From Vulcanimicrobiota bacterium (GTDB lineage: Bacteria; Vulcanimicrobiota; Vulcanimicrobiia; Vulcanimicrobiales; Vulcanimicrobiaceae), in contig OY970223.1 in assembly GCA_963714015.1 (NCBI GenBank), forward strand, positions 160,001 to 224,000: a DNA stretch of 64,000 nucleotides, given 5' to 3'. Position numbers: made by a program. Numbering within the stretch: the first letter of the stretch is position 1; each line of letters opens with the position of its first letter. Positions 20,301 through 32,300 of the stretch are shown here, piece by piece.

Positions 20301-23300
20301 CCGTTCCTTCGAAATGAACGCGATATCGGGCACGAATTCGCTCTCGCTATTATCCGCGGCCCCCACGCAGAAGCGCCACTCGGGCCCAAACTCTCCACGT
20401 TCCGCTGCGCAACGATCGAGAATGCGTAAGAGCGCCGCCTGCACCAAGGCGTGCGTCCGCCGGGGGCTCACTTTGGGATAGGGCCGTCCGTCGAGATATT
20501 CGAGTTCCGGCGGATCGTACAACGTAACCATGGCTTACCTCCTAGACACCACGATGATGCTGTGCCCTTGGTGATCGTTCAGGAACTGGAGTCCCTCGAC
20601 GATCCAGCTGTCCAGGCCTCCGTGCGAATGTTTGGCTACTTCGCGCACGACGTGAATGCGATCTTTGAGCCAGGCCAGTTCCGAGCGAGTCGTCGGCGGC
20701 CAAATAGCAACCTCGCAATCTTCGCATTGATAGCCGTTAGCCATGGCCCACTCTGCGCTGTCGCAAAAAGAGCGTCCTCCAATCGGACTACAATTCATGC
20801 GGCAGACGTCTCAGCGCTTCATGGTGCGAGGAGACGTATAGTTTGCCGATGCAGTTCGATACGCTCGTGAAGTGGCGCTGCCCTCAATTGCTTTTGACGT
20901 AGTTCCAATTCGCCGCGAGCCGTATTCGTTCTACGAAGACTTTCCAGGCTGCCCGCAGCCGCCGCTGATTTCCCTTCCCCCAGAAAGTCGACGCATTGGC
21001 GAAGCGTTCGCTCGGTGTCAAAGACACGCCGCTCTCCCGCATGGTTCTCCAGCTCGGCGTTCAACGCAACGGGCCTTTCGGCGTTCCTGCGCAGTGCTTC
21101 AGCGCGGCTCCCGGAGCTGTTGAACAGCGTGGATATTCGGCGGTCGGCCGGGGACATTCAAAACGCCGCAACGGTAGCGATCGAGGATGACCCGGCCTGC
21201 GCCGATGCGTTTGTCCGAAGCGCAAGTCTTCTCAAAGCGGCTTGGTCGATGTATGCGGACATCTTCAGCGGCCGCTTTGCACCCGACGAACTCAACGGAG
21301 TGCCGCTCGAGATGCGGCAGTATCCGAACGTGTTCGGAACGACGTCCTGCTACGAGAACGGCGCGATCCGCCGGCGCAAGAGCGCCGCCGTTTCTCGAGT
21401 TTTGGTTCTTGCGCGCGGACAAACGTTCGTGCTCGACTTCGGCCGGGATTGGGCCAATCTGGCAATCGATGATATTGCGAGCGCCTTCAAGAAAACGTGG
21501 AGCGAATCGTACGCATCGGATGCAGCCAATCGCGGAGCGAGCCTTGGTCTAGTATCGGCGACGAACGATAAACTGCAGCGATCGCTATTCGAAACGACCC
21601 TCCGTCATGCGACGAATCGCCAATCGCTCGCGGAGCTCCAGAATACCTTCTTGACGATTTGTCTAGATTTGGATGCGGAGCCGCGATCCTACGCTGAAGC
21701 GCTGCAGATTGCTCATGGAGGAAACACGCCGAATCGCTGGTTCAACGCAAGCACGCAAATTGTGGTTTTCGGTAACGCGCGGTCTTGCGGGATTTTCAAT
21801 TTCTCCGCTTGCATCGACGGCAACGTGATGATGCGCACCGCAAGCGAGCTGCGCGCCCGTGCGGCTCGGTACACTTCCCAGGCGGAGCATCGTGCGGAGC
21901 GGATGGGGGAGTCCCCGCCGAAAGCGCGGCGGCTCCGCTGGCTCATAGATGCGCAGGTTATCAAACGGGCGCAATCCGATCTCGCACAACTCGCCGACAG
22001 CGCGCAGTTCACTTTTGAACTTCCAGGCTATGGAAGCGCGCGATTCCATTCCCGAGGATTGGAACCGGTTTCAGCCTTCGTCATGGCGGTCAATATTGCG
22101 GCGTCCCGGATACTCCGCCGAGCACCCATCGTGTCGGAGTTTCTTACGCAGTCGCGATACCGGTACATGGGCGTCCGGTCAATCGTAACGACCACTCCTG
22201 AACATTTACGTTTTTTCGAGGCATTAGAATTACCCCAGCGAGATGTTCGTCATGCGCGGGCCGCTTTCGAAAACGCCTGCGCGAAACGGGCGCAGGCCTG
22301 CCGCAATGCTCGCTCCGTCTTGGCAATTCTTCCCGCGATCGATCTCTTCCGGAGCACCCTAGACACGCGCGGCCGAAAGACGTTCAATCGCAAGCTCTAC
22401 GGGTGCGTCGCCTTGCTGAGACGGCTGGGCCTTTCGGTGCCGCCGACCGACGTCACCCTCTCCTCTCCGGCGCTCGCGCCGGGAGTCCGATTCGTGGGAC
22501 GTTCGGGTGTGCGAACGCGCAGCACCGGCGGATTCCTGATGCATTATCACCTCTTAGAAGATCGGCTGGTGGTCACCGTTATGCCCGGCATCGAATGCCG
22601 CCATTCCAACGAGACTGATGGTTGCAGAAATTCGCCGGGCTCTGGACGATCTGCTGAACCTTTTTACTAATAGTAATTGCTCCTCCGCCGAAGGTGCGGA
22701 CGGCTGAATCGCAAACACAGATGGTTGCCGGCTCATTACGCACGCCGGCTTGCGTACTAAAACGGAGGCGCCATCTCATGGAGTACGCCGCACCGAACGT
22801 CCTGACGTCTTACCTCGTTCCGGAGCTCTCTCGGGATGCAAGGGGCTTTGCCAGCGATCCCGTCTTCTGCGATCGTGACGAGCGCGCAGACTCGGGCCAT
22901 TATCCGGACTGCACGTATACCTTCGTGCCTCGCGGCGGGTACGACTAGCCCGCCGCTTTTGCGGCATCTCGCCAAACGGCCCATTAATCCGACCGCAGAC
23001 GGCTCAGCGCTCTATAGTACGACGGCACGTATGGCCGTCCGTTGCCCTCGGATACGCTCATTTTATGTGGAGCACTTCGCCTGCGGGGCGCGCCGCTTTG
23101 GCATGGCTGCTCACGCCGCTTTCGATTGAAGAGTTTCAATCGCAGTACTACGAGCGTGCGCCGATGCACGTTGCCCGCGACCGAGCTGGATATTACCAGC
23201 GCGTCTTCGATCTGCTCGAAGTGGAACGCATTCTCTACGCCAGCGAGCTTCACAAAGCCGATATCCGCCTGGTCAAAGACGGCGTGCCGGTGCGGCCGGA

Positions 23301-29300: not shown

Positions 29301-32300
29301 ACATATCGCGCAACGAGTCCGGACGCTACGATCGATATTTCAGTTTGCAGGAGATGGAGCGCGTGCTCTTCGGGTGCGAGCTGAACGTCAAGGATCTGCA
29401 GATCATCAAAGACGGCACCGCCGCTCGCCCCGAGACCTACACTCGCTCGCATTCCGAACCGAAACATCCGCTCGATCAGGCCGCCGGTGAAATCGTGAAC
29501 CCCGACCGCGCGAGCGCCCTCTTCGCAAGCGGGTGCACGGTCGTGCTCGACAACGTCAACAAATATTCCGCGTCGATGGCGTCGCTGTGCCGCGATCTGG
29601 AGATGTTTTTCGGCTGCCACGTCAACCCGAACGTCTACATGACGCCGCCGGGAAATCAAGGCTTCGCGGTTCATTACGACACGCATGACGCGCTGATCGT
29701 CCAAATCCGCGGATCGAAGCACTGGCGCGTGTACGAGTCCGCATTCCGGCTGCCGCTCGAGCATCAATACTGGGACAAGAAACTCTACCCCGCCGGCAAT
29801 ATGGTGCTCGATATGGAGATGCGGCCCGGGGACTTCCTTTACATTCCGCGCGGCTGCCTGCACGAGGCGAAGGCCAATGACGAGCTTTCGCTGCACGTAA
29901 CCATCGGACTCTATCCGACCCTTTGGACGCACGTCGCCGCGCAAGCGCTGATGAGGGCGGCGGAGGCGCTTCCATCGCTGCGGCAGGCGGCCGACGAAGA
30001 CGCAGCGGAGGCAATCTCGGCCGAGCTCGCGCAGGTCCTTGCGCCCGCGCGTCTGACCGAAGCTCTGCGCGCAGCCCGGCGAAGCTGGCGCAACGATCGC
30101 GACAACGGCCTCGAAGGACAACTCGAACAACTCGCCGCGCTGCCGCATCTGAACGAAGCGTCGATCGTGCGCAGGCGTCCGAACCTCTCTTACGAGTGGA
30201 TGGAGACCGAGCGCGGCGTCACGCTCACGTTTTCGGGAAAAACGGTGATACTCTCCAAGTCCGCGGCCGTCGTCATTCGCAAACTCGAAGCGGCCTCCGA
30301 ACTGGACGTCGCCGCACTCTGCGAACAAGACGAAAGTGCGCTCAAAGCGGTGCGCAAGCTGATTCAGGAAGGGTTCGCGATTCAGGAGCTCGGCGGCGAA
30401 CGCCGCTATAGAATCGCGTAGATCGTGTGACCGTCGGCGATCAAGATCGTATTTCCTAACAAAACGGGCGGCGAAACGGAAAACGGTTCATTGAACGGCT
30501 GCTCGCGCAACACGCTTCCCGTTGCGGCGTTCAATGTGTAGAACATTCCCGCCGTATCGCCGACGAATACACGCCCTCCGGCGGTCACGGGGCTCATCTT
30601 AATCGGAGCGATCGACGTGAAGCGCCAGCGCACGGCTCCCGATCGCGCGTCGAAGGCGATCAACTCGTCGCTCGTGGGCATTGCTTGAAAATACATGCCC
30701 GCGGCATAGGTGCCGGCGATGGCGCGCTCCGACGATCCGACTTCGGTGTAGGGACCGGTGCGCGGACTGCGGTAGGTCCAGCGAACTGCGCCCGTATGCG
30801 CATCCAGCGCGGTCACGATCGTGCGCCCTTCCTTGCGGCTCGACCAGTTGCTCGCGTCGTTTTCGACGTTGCTTACGAAAATCGATCCCGCGCCGTAGGC
30901 CGGCGAGCAATCCGAATTGCCGAAGGGCGCGCTCCACAGCTGTTTTCCCGATTCCGGGTCGAGCGCATACGTGCGGCAATGATAAGGCCACGTGTAGTCG
31001 CATGCGGAAACGTAGCCCACTCCGCCGGCCAGCGTCGAAGAGGCCATGGTAGCGGGACCGACCAGCGCGTCTTTCCAGCGCAGGTTGCCGGATGCTGCGT
31101 CCAAACCGTAGGCGTGAAAGTCACCGTTCGCAAAAAAGATCGTGCCGCCGTCGATCGCCGGAGAAGGCATGTCTTCGCCGACAGTCGGGAAGGCCCACCG
31201 CTGCGCGCCGGTGCGCGCGTCGAACGCGATCAAACGATCGCCGCCGGGCCGCCCCCAGACGAGATTTCCGCTGTGCTCCGGATCGGTCGAGAGTTTCGGA
31301 TTGGGGATTCGCGCATTCGTCCCGGAACCGACGTACACGATGCCGTTTGCCAGAACCGGCGTCGACATCAATACGTCGTTTGTATGAGTGCGCCACAGCA
31401 CTTTGCCGTTCTTGGCATTAATTGCCAAAAGCTCGTTCGCAAAGGTGTCGACGAAAAGCGTCGTGCCCGCCACCGCGAATCCGCCGTTGACCTGCTGACC
31501 GACGTCGAGCTTCCAATGCGTGCTGAAACCGTCCAGAGGCACGACGGCGTTGTGATCGGGCGTGCGTTGAAACATCGCCCAAGAGTCGGATGGCGACACG
31601 TTCGCGGTCGCGCCATGACTGCACGCGCAGAGAACGGCGAGCAGAGCAAGTACTGAAAGCCTTACCATACTCGAAGGTTCTTTTTGCAGCCCGATACTCC
31701 CCGCATGCAAACGTCTCATTCTGCCGTAAGCCATTACGCCCATGAAGTCACGACGCCGGGGCTTTACTATCAAAAGAGCATGCGCATCGCCTTCGTCTGT
31801 CCTTTGCTTCCGCCGCATTATAACGGATGCGGAGACGCAACGGATCGGCTTGTGCGCGAGTTCCGGGAACGCGGCGACGAAACGCTCGTGCTTACCGACG
31901 ACGTCGCCGGCGTACTGCATCCCTTTCCGATGAAGAGCGTCGGCGGGTGGGGCGTGCGCTCGCTCTTCGAAACGAAACGCGCGGTGGCGGCCTTCCGGCC
32001 CGACGCGGTGATGATGCAGTATACGCCTTTTCTCTATCCGCCGCGGTCGTTGTATCCGGCGCTGGCATTGCGAGGATTACGCGGTTATCGCCGCATCCTG
32101 TACGCGCACGAGTTCTTCTATTCCGCGCAGAGCGTTGCCGTGCGGGGTCGCGCAAAAGCCGCCTACCTCGCGCTGCGCGACAAGGCCGCCCTGAGCGCCG
32201 CCGATTGGATCTACGTGGCAGGCACCGCACGGCGCGATGCTTTACTGCAGAAGCTGCCCGCGCTCGCCTCTCGCGTGAAGGTCGTTCCGTTCGGCGCAAA

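Follow-up and report, generated by a model that had tools for sequence, protein, structure and literature searches.

JmjC oxygenase genes and leader-bearing small peptides as the probable oxygenase-bearing part of a bipartite RiPP-like system in a few Eremiobacterota

Related systems described to date

The linear polyphosphorylated peptides (LPP) of Bacillota, with the components LppA/B/K/S/N/D, were described by Popov et al. (Nat Commun 2026, PMC13381572). According to that account, the RiPP recognition elements (RREs) of lasso and LPP systems bind the motif [Y/W]xxPx[L/V/I/F/A], and the LPP RRE presents an F-E-T cleavage site (F-3/E-2/T-1) to a signal-peptidase-like enzyme. Hydroxylases of the PF08007/JmjC type are already known in RiPP tailoring, namely PhaI of phaeornamide (PMC8784127), BipG/BpmG/PbsQ of the biphenomycins (PMC12707348, PMC12257519), and CzlI of curacozole (PMC11575548). 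There, as at the locus analyzed here, an Fe(II)/2-oxoglutarate JmjC-type enzyme is encoded beside a ribosomal precursor, its action on that precursor being a prediction in our case. As those accounts present them, PhaI, BipG, and CzlI carry out a single tailoring reaction in pathways whose class is defined by other enzymes (lanthionine synthetase, MNIO/rSAM, or cyclodehydratase) and target ornithine or phenylalanine, whereas here the oxygenase is the sole enzyme adjoining most precursors, occurs in up to four copies, and is found with no arginase and with cores in which Lys and Arg make up 5 of 279 residues.

Fusions of RREs to JmjC domains have also been catalogued, as the RRE-Finder model RREFam042 ("Cupin_JmjC_RRE") in Table S1 of Bregman et al. 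(mSystems 2025, PMC12710340). The domain fused to the PF08007 JmjC is viewed there as an RRE, and bacterial homologs occur in RiPP-like contexts; as far as the available text of that paper goes, it names no class, precursor family, or product, and kinship of the present enzymes to RREFam042 is a candidate relationship only.

Precursor peptides

A preliminary description of the window (the entire 64,000-nucleotide stretch of DNA that was analyzed) had recognized, at 22778-30421, two paralogous small genes of 56 and 58 aa along with four JmjC_2 oxygenase genes, all of which we recovered as open reading frames (ORFs). The first peptide gene (22778-22948, plus strand; peptide profile E 3.8e-22) codes for a 26-residue leader followed by a 30-residue Asp/Cys-rich core with Tyr-Asp at its end, and the product of the second (24607-24783, plus strand) likewise matches the peptide profile. 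Both have a GGAGG-type ribosome-binding site 7 to 8 nt 5' of the ATG, and the GC content of the first by codon position (0.63/0.49/0.72) is similar to that of adjacent genes. The two peptides are 59% identical across residues 1 to 46, with a 3.5-fold excess of synonymous over nonsynonymous change in their leaders (0.53 versus 0.15). An ortholog of the second peptide in the protein database (P0005; 58 aa, 88% identical) differs from it at one leader and six core positions.

Alignment of 13 peptides revealed a conserved leader of about 26 residues, x-Y-x-x-P-x-h-h-x-S-Y...L.....G-F-x-S (where h is hydrophobic), preceding a hypervariable core. M1, Y3, P6, L17, G23, F24, and S26 are invariant, and positions 8 and 9 are hydrophobic; Y12, which had been listed with them, varies once the peptides of the second locus (see below) are added. 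A conserved leader joined to a hypervariable core is the pattern of cleaved precursors. The small ORFs behave as leader-plus-core peptides with the appearance of genuine RiPP precursors, which supports the earlier proposal. In its YxxPx-hydrophobic segment, the leader matches the known recognition motif and appears to be of the lasso/LPP type. Likeness to lasso peptides extends to the B1 and TbiB1 structures among the fold matches of the oxygenases (see below), but neither a cyclase nor a B2 peptidase was detected with Pfam among the approximately 40 window ORFs between 12.7 and 50.8 kb.

Between the second peptide gene and the oxygenase gene that follows it lies a terminator-like hairpin (24812-24852, plus strand) with a 15-bp stem followed by UUUUU. 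The region containing it (24784-24856) has a minimum free energy of -42.1 kcal/mol (z -5.3), and none of 200 shuffled sequences was equally stable. This arrangement is what speaks for viewing the small ORFs as cis-regulatory upstream ORFs or attenuators of oxygenase expression, with no role for the peptide itself. We regard that explanation as highly improbable, given that the leader is conserved as amino acids, that members of the family occur beside a PqqD gene with no adjacent oxygenase, and that no comparable hairpin is present 3' of the first peptide gene (z -0.59). Taken with the ribosome-binding sites, gene-like codon-position GC content, synonymous excess, and pairing at eight of eight loci (see below), the hairpin and its U-run indicate that the peptide genes are real genes.

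JmjC oxygenases and neighboring genes

All four oxygenases, encoded on the plus strand, exceed the Pfam cut-off for JmjC_2 (E 3e-24 to 4e-28). The earlier count of four stands, with the correction that the first gene, taken to span 23065-24231, is broken: a three-frame comparison and a split homology match place a one-base frameshift near 24165-24175, with the ORF stopping at 24231 and the last ~38 residues (the C-terminal helix) in another frame up to the real end at 24286 (23065-24286; E 1.1e-25). The second oxygenase (24965-26191; 408 aa; E 2e-27) is of the ribosomal-oxygenase (ROX) type. The third (27184-28416; 410 aa; E 3.1e-24) has no peptide gene directly upstream and is a divergent paralog, 33% identical to the second, with a tree partner at positions 9094-10335 of locus L033; the fourth (29201-30421; 406 aa; E 3.7e-28) is 46% identical to the second. 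An alignment of 23 homologs shows no variation in the HxD...H triad and a lysine (H159, D161, H223, and K174 in the numbering of the second oxygenase), as previously noted.

The AlphaFold model of the second oxygenase (pLDDT 88.5) comprises a JmjC, a helical, and a winged-helix domain. Foldseek searches with the full-length model retrieved NO66 as the best match (E 1e-26; TM 0.70 to 0.73), with MINA53 and YcfD also matched, and profile comparison recovered NO66 (E 1e-57) and YcfD (E 2.6e-12). The model thus suggests that these are NO66/MINA53-type ribosomal oxygenases, sharing with NO66, MINA53, and YcfD/RoxA the JmjC_2 domain, the triad, and the three-domain architecture. They differ from them in their genomic coupling to leader-bearing small peptides, with no sign of a ribosomal-protein substrate.

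When the C-terminal domain was compared alone using VIA, the top two matches were ROX winged helices (Z 10.8 and 8.6), followed by matches that include PqqD (7.5), TbtB (7.3), TigE (6.9), the PbtF RRE (6.8), TbiB1 (6.5), and lasso B1 (6.3); Foldseek returned the same two groups. This suggests that the modeled winged helix resembles RREs in fold, the RRE matches being weak (Foldseek E 0.02 to 0.6, none at ≤0.001; VIA Z below 8) and such that the common arrangement alone could suffice for them. Profile comparison of the PqqD protein of the second locus with the oxygenase alignment gave no match.

The same winged helix is found in ribosomal oxygenases acting on ribosomal proteins. The nearest solved relatives are protein hydroxylases, which would suit an enzyme that hydroxylates its own small substrate or partner protein inside the cell, for instance in metal or oxygen handling, and no leader-guided, cleaved, and exported product. 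Related JmjC_2 enzymes of Actinomycetota (30 to 35% identity) offer a parallel in having a different small acidic ORF on their 5' side at 47 of the 79 loci examined from genomes and 36 of the 80 from metagenomes. In eight such loci that were scanned, the pair commonly has housekeeping neighbors, namely genes for succinyl-CoA ligase, biotin carboxylase, and a sucrase/ferredoxin-like protein. However, the peptides of Eremiobacterota combine a conserved YxxP leader with a hypervariable core and have paralogs beside PqqD, peptidase, and exporter genes, and we think this explanation improbable.

Two further genes accompany these modules. A choline/carnitine O-acyltransferase-like gene (21015-22670, plus strand; Pfam Carn_acyltransf E 3.4e-36) ends 108 nt 5' of the first peptide gene; its homologs are absent from all related loci examined, and it is possibly an accessory acyltransferase of uncertain membership in the system. 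A sulfotransferase-like gene (26214-27176, plus strand; 320 aa) scores 17.2 bits with Pfam Sulfotransfer_3, under the cut-off of 27, and its protein has no match among PDB sequences; in locus L032, two homologs (41 to 42% identity) stand in tandem 5' of the peptide.

In the cores encoded at JmjC loci there is a loop rich in Asp, Asn, and Gly, and Cys usually occurs twice. Asp and Asn account for 72 of their 279 residues (26%; 13 cores), compared with 7 of 78 (9%; seven cores) at PqqD loci and 7.9% in 14 window proteins. From this composition, the sole basis for the idea, we would guess that the oxygenases hydroxylate Asp/Asn of the core.

A second locus with related peptides

Two further members of the peptide family were found at 42.9 to 43.2 kb, 13 kb from the oxygenase locus, in a minus-strand gene set. 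The third member (42907-43050; 47 aa) matches the peptide profile at E 2.6e-8 and reaches E 6e-16 with alignment A2, in which it is itself included; the fourth (43050-43151; 33 aa, with a C-terminal Ser) matches at E 4e-4, or E 1.3e-10 with the same alignment, which includes it as well. Adjacent to them is a discrete PqqD-type RRE (42637-42897; 86 aa; Pfam PqqD E 6.7e-9, over the cut-off), with orthologs in loci L052, L054, L057, and L038. An HprK-related kinase-like gene (41766-42630) lies in two frames, 42025-42630 and then 41769-42269; it matches TIGR04352 at E 1.7e-4, far under the cut-off, and both pieces match an intact, orthologous 302-residue kinase frame of L052 (E 4e-61 and 2e-63). 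An S24/S26-type serine peptidase-like gene (41335-41859; Pfam Peptidase_S24 E 4.3e-8), with homologs in L052, L054, and L057, also matches NCBIfam signal peptidase I models weakly, under their cut-off; it is a candidate leader peptidase on sequence grounds, the peptidase and kinase assignments both having scores under curated cut-offs.

The set continues with an ABC-2 permease (43249-44049; ABC2_membrane E 5e-17) and an ABC ATPase (44049-44921; ABC_tran E 4e-31), together a candidate exporter; a PF14907 nucleotidyltransferase (44833-45978; NTP_transf_5 E 1.6e-52); and, at the head of the minus-strand operon, a LuxR-type response regulator (45997-46665; GerE E 1.9e-20). Genes of the GerE family are found close to the JmjC loci L034 and L036 too. 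On the plus strand, a 304-aa protein (46923-47837) may be a second HprK-related kinase, for which the evidence is weak (E 8.2e-5 in a phmmer match with the kinase frame of L052; no Pfam family matched). In view of the frameshifts in the first oxygenase and kinase genes, parts of the system may be inactive here, or the assembly may contain indel errors.

Distribution across the phylum

Among 401 genomes of the phylum, 69 have an oxygenase match at E ≤1e-10, and at a best E of ≤1e-50 the count is 20 other genomes, the number reported earlier. The eight closest outside oxygenase loci (E 2e-89 to 2.5e-105, from seven genomes) all have the small ORF directly upstream, matching the family at E 5.5e-11 to 5.5e-3 by phmmer and at E 2e-21 to 9e-15 with the profile. 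Its reported lack at more distant loci extends to all 22 loci L010 to L031 and to all 11 wider stretches (L041 to L051). The peptide family is confined to the eight genomes holding the close JmjC clade (0 of the 393 others), and a branch supported at 89/95 has all 10 oxygenases of the peptide-bearing genomes on the same side. The earlier proposal is thus supported in two respects: the peptides are tied to one specific oxygenase clade, and that clade lacks the placement of a housekeeping ribosomal-protein hydroxylase.

The peptides are not, however, found with oxygenases alone: paralogs also stand beside the PqqD/HprK-like/S24-like/PF14907/ABC set, with the same layout in the window, L052, L054, and L057. 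This machinery, whole or in part, is present in seven of the eight peptide-bearing genomes: PqqD was found in four of five genomes searched, and PF14907 orthologs (E ≤1e-93) in six of the 401 (this one and five others), all within the eight. Given also that JmjC tailoring of RiPPs is already known, the claim of a new class defined by a JmjC oxygenase is not supported in its original form.

A self-contained class, with the oxygenase as its only defining enzyme and the PqqD/kinase locus a separate system merely sharing a related leader, nevertheless has points in its favor. With Pfam scans of their neighbors, six of nine JmjC-peptide loci in other genomes (L032 to L040) have no other recognizable RiPP gene within ~6.5 kb, the remaining three having PqqD and kinase-like genes (L038), the sulfotransferase-like genes (L032), or a weak ATP-grasp match (L037). 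The oxygenase may bring its own RRE-like domain, judging from the model; the eighth peptide-bearing genome (G142, 93% complete) holds the pair, and neither PqqD nor the PF14907 orthologue was found in it; and two pathways can share a YxxP-type leader yet discriminate their precursors, as reported in PMC13381572. Against this, the two loci co-occur almost completely across genomes, L038 unites PqqD, peptide, JmjC, and two kinase-like genes contiguously in a single locus, the relative arrangement of the two around a polysaccharide locus is the same in three genomes (in the window, on contig 2 of G294, and on contig 17 of G366), and the JmjC loci have no protease or exporter of their own. We consider a self-contained class unlikely.

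An LPP-like system with added oxygenase modules

On the best reading, to which we assign a probability of roughly 0.6, the locus is the oxygenase-bearing part of a bipartite RiPP-like system present in a few Eremiobacterota. Because paralogous peptides adjoin the second-locus genes and the two parts form a single locus in L038, we favor an LPP-like system enlarged by JmjC-precursor modules over a stand-alone class. As members of the peptide family also occur away from the oxygenases and the machinery recurs in most peptide-bearing genomes, we take the JmjC enzyme to be more probably an extra modification module than a single class-defining enzyme. Features in common with LPP as described are a precursor number of one to three, a conserved YxxP leader followed by a strongly variable C terminus, a gene set resembling that of the second locus, a setting in a polysaccharide biosynthesis region, and a likely cut site, F24-x-S26, that parallels F-3/E-2/T-1, position -3 being aromatic and position -1 a small hydroxyl residue. 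The system differs from LPP in phylum, in lacking the HQ..I..FET part of the LPP leader consensus, in its ABC-2 rather than MsbA-like exporter, in a core position 3 Ser that is not conserved, and in the JmjC oxygenase-precursor modules, of which sections 6, 7, 9, and 11 of PMC13381572 make no mention.

We propose that the leader docks, through its YxxPx-hydrophobic segment, on an RRE, which could be the free-standing PqqD protein or the RRE-like C-terminal winged helix of each oxygenase, whereupon the ROX-type Fe(II)/2-oxoglutarate enzymes would hydroxylate core side chains, most likely at Asp/Asn beta-carbons. The acidic C-terminal Tyr might be modified by the sulfotransferase-like enzyme. 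By analogy with LPP cleavage, the S24/S26-like peptidase would cut the leader after F-x-S, with export through the ABC-2 exporter, and the HprK-like kinases and PF14907 transferase could add extra groups. If this reading is true, these organisms would possess a rare soil-bacterial modified-peptide system that is LPP-like and has a putative hydroxylation step added.

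Locus organization and authenticity of the peptide genes

The locus at 22778-30421 (+) comprises, in order, a 56-aa gene (peptide 1; 22778-22948), a JmjC_2 gene (oxygenase 1; 23065-24231), a 58-aa gene (peptide 2; 24607-24783), a second JmjC_2 gene (oxygenase 2; 24965-26191), a sulfotransferase-like gene (26214-27176), a third JmjC_2 gene (27184-28416), a stretch of about 780 nt, and a fourth JmjC_2 gene (29201-30421). The genome containing it is a single contig of 3.56 Mb (completeness, 89.6%); among relatives with names, the nearest are Candidatus Eremiobacteraeota MAGs. Peptide gene 1 is preceded, at a distance of 108 nt, by a gene for a carnitine-acyltransferase-like protein. 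Close by on its upstream side, the cluster is flanked by genes for a Uma2-family endonuclease (20010-20531, -) and for a STAND-type NTPase (17136-18962, -) that carries an adenylate/guanylate cyclase domain at its N terminus. Consistent with the preliminary description, all four oxygenases score above the Pfam cutoff for PF08007, and the HxD...H iron triad (H159, D161, and H223 in oxygenase 2) and the 2-oxoglutarate-binding basic residue (K174) are invariant in an alignment of 23 sequences. None of the 10 proteins encoded at 21015-30421 matches any NCBIfam family.

The two small genes are genuine. In each, a GGAGG site lies 7-8 nt 5' of the ATG, and the GC contents by codon position (0.63/0.49/0.72 and 0.54/0.44/0.68) are like those of neighboring genes. 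The two leaders differ at a proportion of 0.53 of synonymous and 0.15 of nonsynonymous sites, and a metagenome orthologue with 88% identity carries one change in the leader and six in the core. Folding predicts a 15-bp hairpin followed by UUUUU 3' of peptide gene 2 (-42.1 kcal/mol, z -5.3) and no comparable hairpin downstream of peptide gene 1. A sigma-70 promoter scan of 20500-31000 found no sites against 2.7 expected and did not list this hairpin, and no Rfam match reached the gathering score over 20000-47000. Among public sequencing runs covering 22700-26200, no RNA run is listed, and a soil DNA run contains a small share. A peptide search of 5.8 billion proteins, word based and thus of limited sensitivity for so short a query, returned 10 matches, all unnamed or "hypothetical."

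The division into a conserved leader and a variable core holds across 13 aligned peptides, in which Y3 and P6 are invariant, positions 8-9 are hydrophobic, and no conservation extends past S26. The leader reads Y-x-x-P-x-h-h followed by G-F-x-S 21 residues past the Tyr, and it contains the motif [Y/W]xxPx[L/V/I/F/A], described as characteristic of the leaders of lasso peptides and linear polyphosphorylated peptides (LPPs) (Popov et al. 2026, PMC13381572). Cleavage of the leader would fall after Ser26, where conservation ends. In a set of 13 cores encoded at JmjC loci, 11 have exactly two Cys residues.

Oxygenase 1 contains a one-base frameshift within a G+C run near 24165-24175, as a result of which its last helix lies in another frame. 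It is one of two frameshifted genes of the proposed system, the other being the HprK-related kinase-like gene discussed below. The gene for a UDP-glucose/GDP-mannose dehydrogenase at 37236-38547 (-) also seems to be interrupted: one ORF (37585-38547, -) encodes the N domain, and a second ORF that overlaps it (37236-37934, -) encodes the central and C domains. The occurrence of three apparent frameshifts in one window favors, without proving, the interpretation that these lesions are indel errors of assembly; several homologous loci are also split.

The segment between oxygenases 3 and 4 (28417-29200) has no match to the peptide family or to Rfam. Two ORFs of 99-100 aa overlap it or lie within it (28391-28690 and 28851-29153), for which no homologues were found in any of the fetched loci and no Pfam family scored above the cutoff. 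A PQQ_2/BamB-like β-propeller gene adjoins the JmjC locus in four cases (30406-31920 [-] in the window and, in loci from other genomes, L033:5621-7063, L037:12121-14400, and L040:10801-11769); the one in L033 is clearly orthologous to that in the window (E = 5.5e-131), and the association may reflect either shared synteny or a functional link. A further conserved protein (37-48% identity) adjoins peptide or JmjC genes at three loci from two genomes (L032:11479-12648, L033:10451-11530, and L036:10707-11348) and is absent from the window; it has no Pfam match even at E ≤ 1.

Distribution of the peptide-oxygenase pair

A search of 401 genomes of the phylum recovered oxygenase homologues in 69 at E ≤ 1e-10. 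The proposed pairing was borne out at all eight of the closest loci outside this genome, from seven genomes, each of which has a family peptide directly upstream of the oxygenase. None of the 33 more distant oxygenase loci examined has a family member, and none of the small ORFs that surround 10 distant oxygenase genes of Eremiobacterota is precursor-like. A profile built from the 13 peptides detected the family in 8 of the 401 genomes (a count that takes in the unpublished genome G247), exactly those with the close oxygenase clade. Since seven of the eight contributed sequences to the profile, the informative outcomes are the absence of matches in the remaining 393 genomes and the match in G247, which was not part of it. 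One named public record (L060) has two family peptides at a single JmjC locus.

In a maximum-likelihood tree of 23 oxygenases, a branch with support of 89/95 sets off the 10 from peptide-bearing genomes, and a long branch (1.35; 100/100) parts them from 12 Eremiobacterota homologues without a peptide. Scanning species-representative genomes with the oxygenase alignment yielded 79 loci, among which YxxP peptides occur only in four Eremiobacterota loci. The best 80 loci from the corresponding metagenome scan are all ≤36% identical, and none has a YxxP peptide; hence, they add no members to the close clade. Further family peptides in two genomes of the phylum (G294 and G142) are encoded at L053:8656-8934 (-), L055:8437-8661, and L056:5284-5433, with no JmjC gene and no PqqD, kinase, or PF14907 homologue detected within the stretches fetched.

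A second peptide locus with an LPP-like gene complement

The peptide profile also matched two small minus-strand ORFs about 13 kb away (42907-43050 and 43050-43151). On the same strand, they are surrounded by genes for a LuxR-type regulator, a PF14907 nucleotidyltransferase, an ABC ATPase, an ABC-2 permease, an 86-aa PqqD protein, an HprK-related kinase-like protein, and an S24-like peptidase. The PqqD gene (PF05402, E = 6.7e-9, above the cutoff), coding for a RiPP recognition element (RRE), lies 10 nt from the peptide gene at 42907-43050. The peptidase matches Peptidase_S24 above the cutoff (E = 4.3e-8) and TIGR02228 far below it (E = 0.0011). The kinase-like gene, broken by its frameshift within about 42180-42270, scores 20.8 bits against TIGR04352 (cutoff, 200) and has an intact orthologue in locus L052. 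This second locus changes the initial reading of the system as a RiPP class defined by a JmjC oxygenase: the recurrence of the pair stands, but paralogues of the peptide adjoin PqqD, kinase, peptidase, PF14907, and ABC transporter genes.

The link between the two loci exceeds shared leaders. At locus L038 (genome G400), genes for PqqD, the peptide, the JmjC oxygenase, and two kinase-like proteins are contiguous, with PqqD upstream of the peptide. Two other genomes (G294 and G366) have a PqqD locus with two peptides 12-13 kb from the JmjC locus, the same layout as in the window. PqqD was found in four of the five genomes searched, G142 being the exception, and PF14907 orthologues (E ≤ 1e-93) are present in 6 of the 401 genomes, every one of them among the 8 that carry the peptide.

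Among the closest known parallels are the LPP systems, whose precursors are reported to combine a conserved YxxP leader with variable C termini and whose clusters often lie within polysaccharide loci (PMC13381572). Their discrete RRE and uncharacterized NTP transferase are both matched here (PF05402, E = 6.7e-9; PF14907, E = 1.6e-52). However, the LPP export pump is MsbA-like, whereas the locus in the window has a DrrAB-type ABC-2 permease with a separate ATPase. Moreover, in LPPs, a core serine is multiply phosphorylated, whereas core position 3 is never Ser in the 13 aligned peptides (Thr in 4). In the LPP pathway, LppB is described as presenting an F-E-T cut site to LppS (PMC13381572). Searches of open-access text turned up no description of this family of YxxP peptides, nor of any LPP-type system with a JmjC module.

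The C-terminal winged helix of the oxygenases

The AlphaFold model of oxygenase 2 (pLDDT, 88.5; pTM, 0.85) has the three-domain build of ribosomal oxygenases (ROXs), with JmjC, helical, and winged-helix domains, and in Foldseek searches it aligns over its full length with NO66 (E = 1e-26; TM score, 0.70-0.73), MINA53, and YcfD. In comparisons of sequence profiles, the family lies closer to NO66 (1e-57) and MINA53 (2e-49) than it does to YxbC (6e-26) and YcfD (about 3e-12). Modeled alone (pLDDT, 87.1), the C-terminal domain consists of four strands and three helices and closes with another, short strand. It matches the winged helices of MINA53 (Z 10.8) and NO66 (Z 8.6) best, and the next matches include the RREs of PqqD (7.5), TbtB (7.3), TigE (6.9), PbtF (6.8), MibB (6.8), TbiB1 (6.5), lasso B1 (6.3), and MccB (6.2); Foldseek retrieved the same two groups (E = 0.02-0.6). 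These modest scores indicate a likeness of the modeled domain to RREs in fold only, and when the PqqD protein was compared by profile with the aligned oxygenases, no similarity was detected. The likeness agrees with the report by Bregman et al. of RRE-like folds fused to PF08007 with bacterial homologues in RiPP-like contexts, their Table S1 including an RRE-Finder model named Cupin_JmjC_RRE (PMC12710340). Gene context points to the peptides, rather than a ribosomal protein, as the candidate substrate.

Predicted modification of the core

Asp and Asn make up 72 of 279 residues (26%) in the 13 JmjC-locus cores versus 7 of 78 (9%) in the PqqD-locus cores and 7.9% in 14 window proteins. Asn and Asp are known substrates of JmjC enzymes such as FIH. 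By analogy with FIH and from core composition, we favor the prediction that the enzymes hydroxylate Asp/Asn in the core, because the cores are rich in these residues, nearly devoid of Lys and Arg (5 of 279), and in 5 of 13 cases without His. On this last ground, we rejected His, which analogy to NO66/MINA53 might suggest, as a general target. Nor does the system fit hydroxylation of ornithine of the PhaI/BipG type, in which a partner peptide arginase converts core Arg to Orn: the JmjC-locus cores have almost no Lys or Arg, and no arginase-type family emerged in Pfam scans of window ORFs and the JmjC-peptide loci L032-L040.

The sulfotransferase-like protein (26214-27176) scores 17.2 bits against PF13469 (cutoff, 27), has no PDB sequence match, and among the fetched loci has homologues only in L032, where the score is 27.5 bits. 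Peptides at these two loci end in -Y-D, -Y-D, and -D-Y (22940-22948, 24775-24783, and L032:11105-11275), and this shared acidic Tyr motif weakly hints at Tyr sulfation by the sulfotransferase-like enzyme. Among the other aligned JmjC-adjacent peptides, a C-terminal Tyr occurs only in L034 (-S-Y-G), without an acidic neighbor.

JmjC-peptide pairs beyond the phylum

In about 45-47 of the 79 genome loci (L062-L122; mostly Thermoleophilia, Gaiellales, and Solirubrobacterales) and in 36 of the best 80 metagenome loci (L137-L156), a different small acidic ORF ends just before the JmjC_2 gene. The loci are mostly from Actinomycetota, and their enzymes are 30-35% identical to those of the window. The ORF encodes a TLTDEEIET-like motif and an Asp/Thr/Gly-rich tail and is in a different frame from the oxygenase; the example at L062:2796-3011 is preceded by an AAGGAGG site. 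Pfam scans of eight such loci found succinyl-CoA ligase, sucrase/ferredoxin-like, and biotin carboxylase genes as recurring housekeeping neighbors. NO66-like JmjC enzymes are thus widely coupled to small Asp-rich peptides, and in the Eremiobacterota clade this coupling involves an RRE-type leader. Three JmjC_2 paralogues stand in tandem in an Actinomycetota MAG (L087:2797-6762), an array that recalls the fourfold set of the window; upstream of it, no ORF for a small peptide was detected.

Implications

A sweeping interpretation, which we regard as improbable, is that ROX-type JmjC enzymes, their winged helix serving as an RRE that binds leaders, constitute a broad, unrecognized family of peptide Asp/Asn β-hydroxylases. 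Such a family would include both the YxxP-leader peptides described here and the acidic "TLTDEEIET" miniproteins of Actinomycetota; the resulting ribosomal peptides would bear many β-hydroxy-Asp/Asn residues and chelate metals, e.g., iron or calcium, and the winged helix of eukaryotic NO66/MINA53 would be a relic of a peptide recognition element.

More immediately, if the enzymes do hydroxylate the peptides, then a JmjC protein of the ribosomal oxygenase type would act as a leader-guided peptide modifier that brings its own recognition domain. The LPP family, described only recently, would thereby reach a little-known soil phylum and acquire a new modification. The pair would further provide a two-gene system, one peptide and one enzyme, in which to test the role of a bacterial NO66-like oxygenase, and it would bear on the many JmjC-peptide pairs of Actinomycetota that have no described function.
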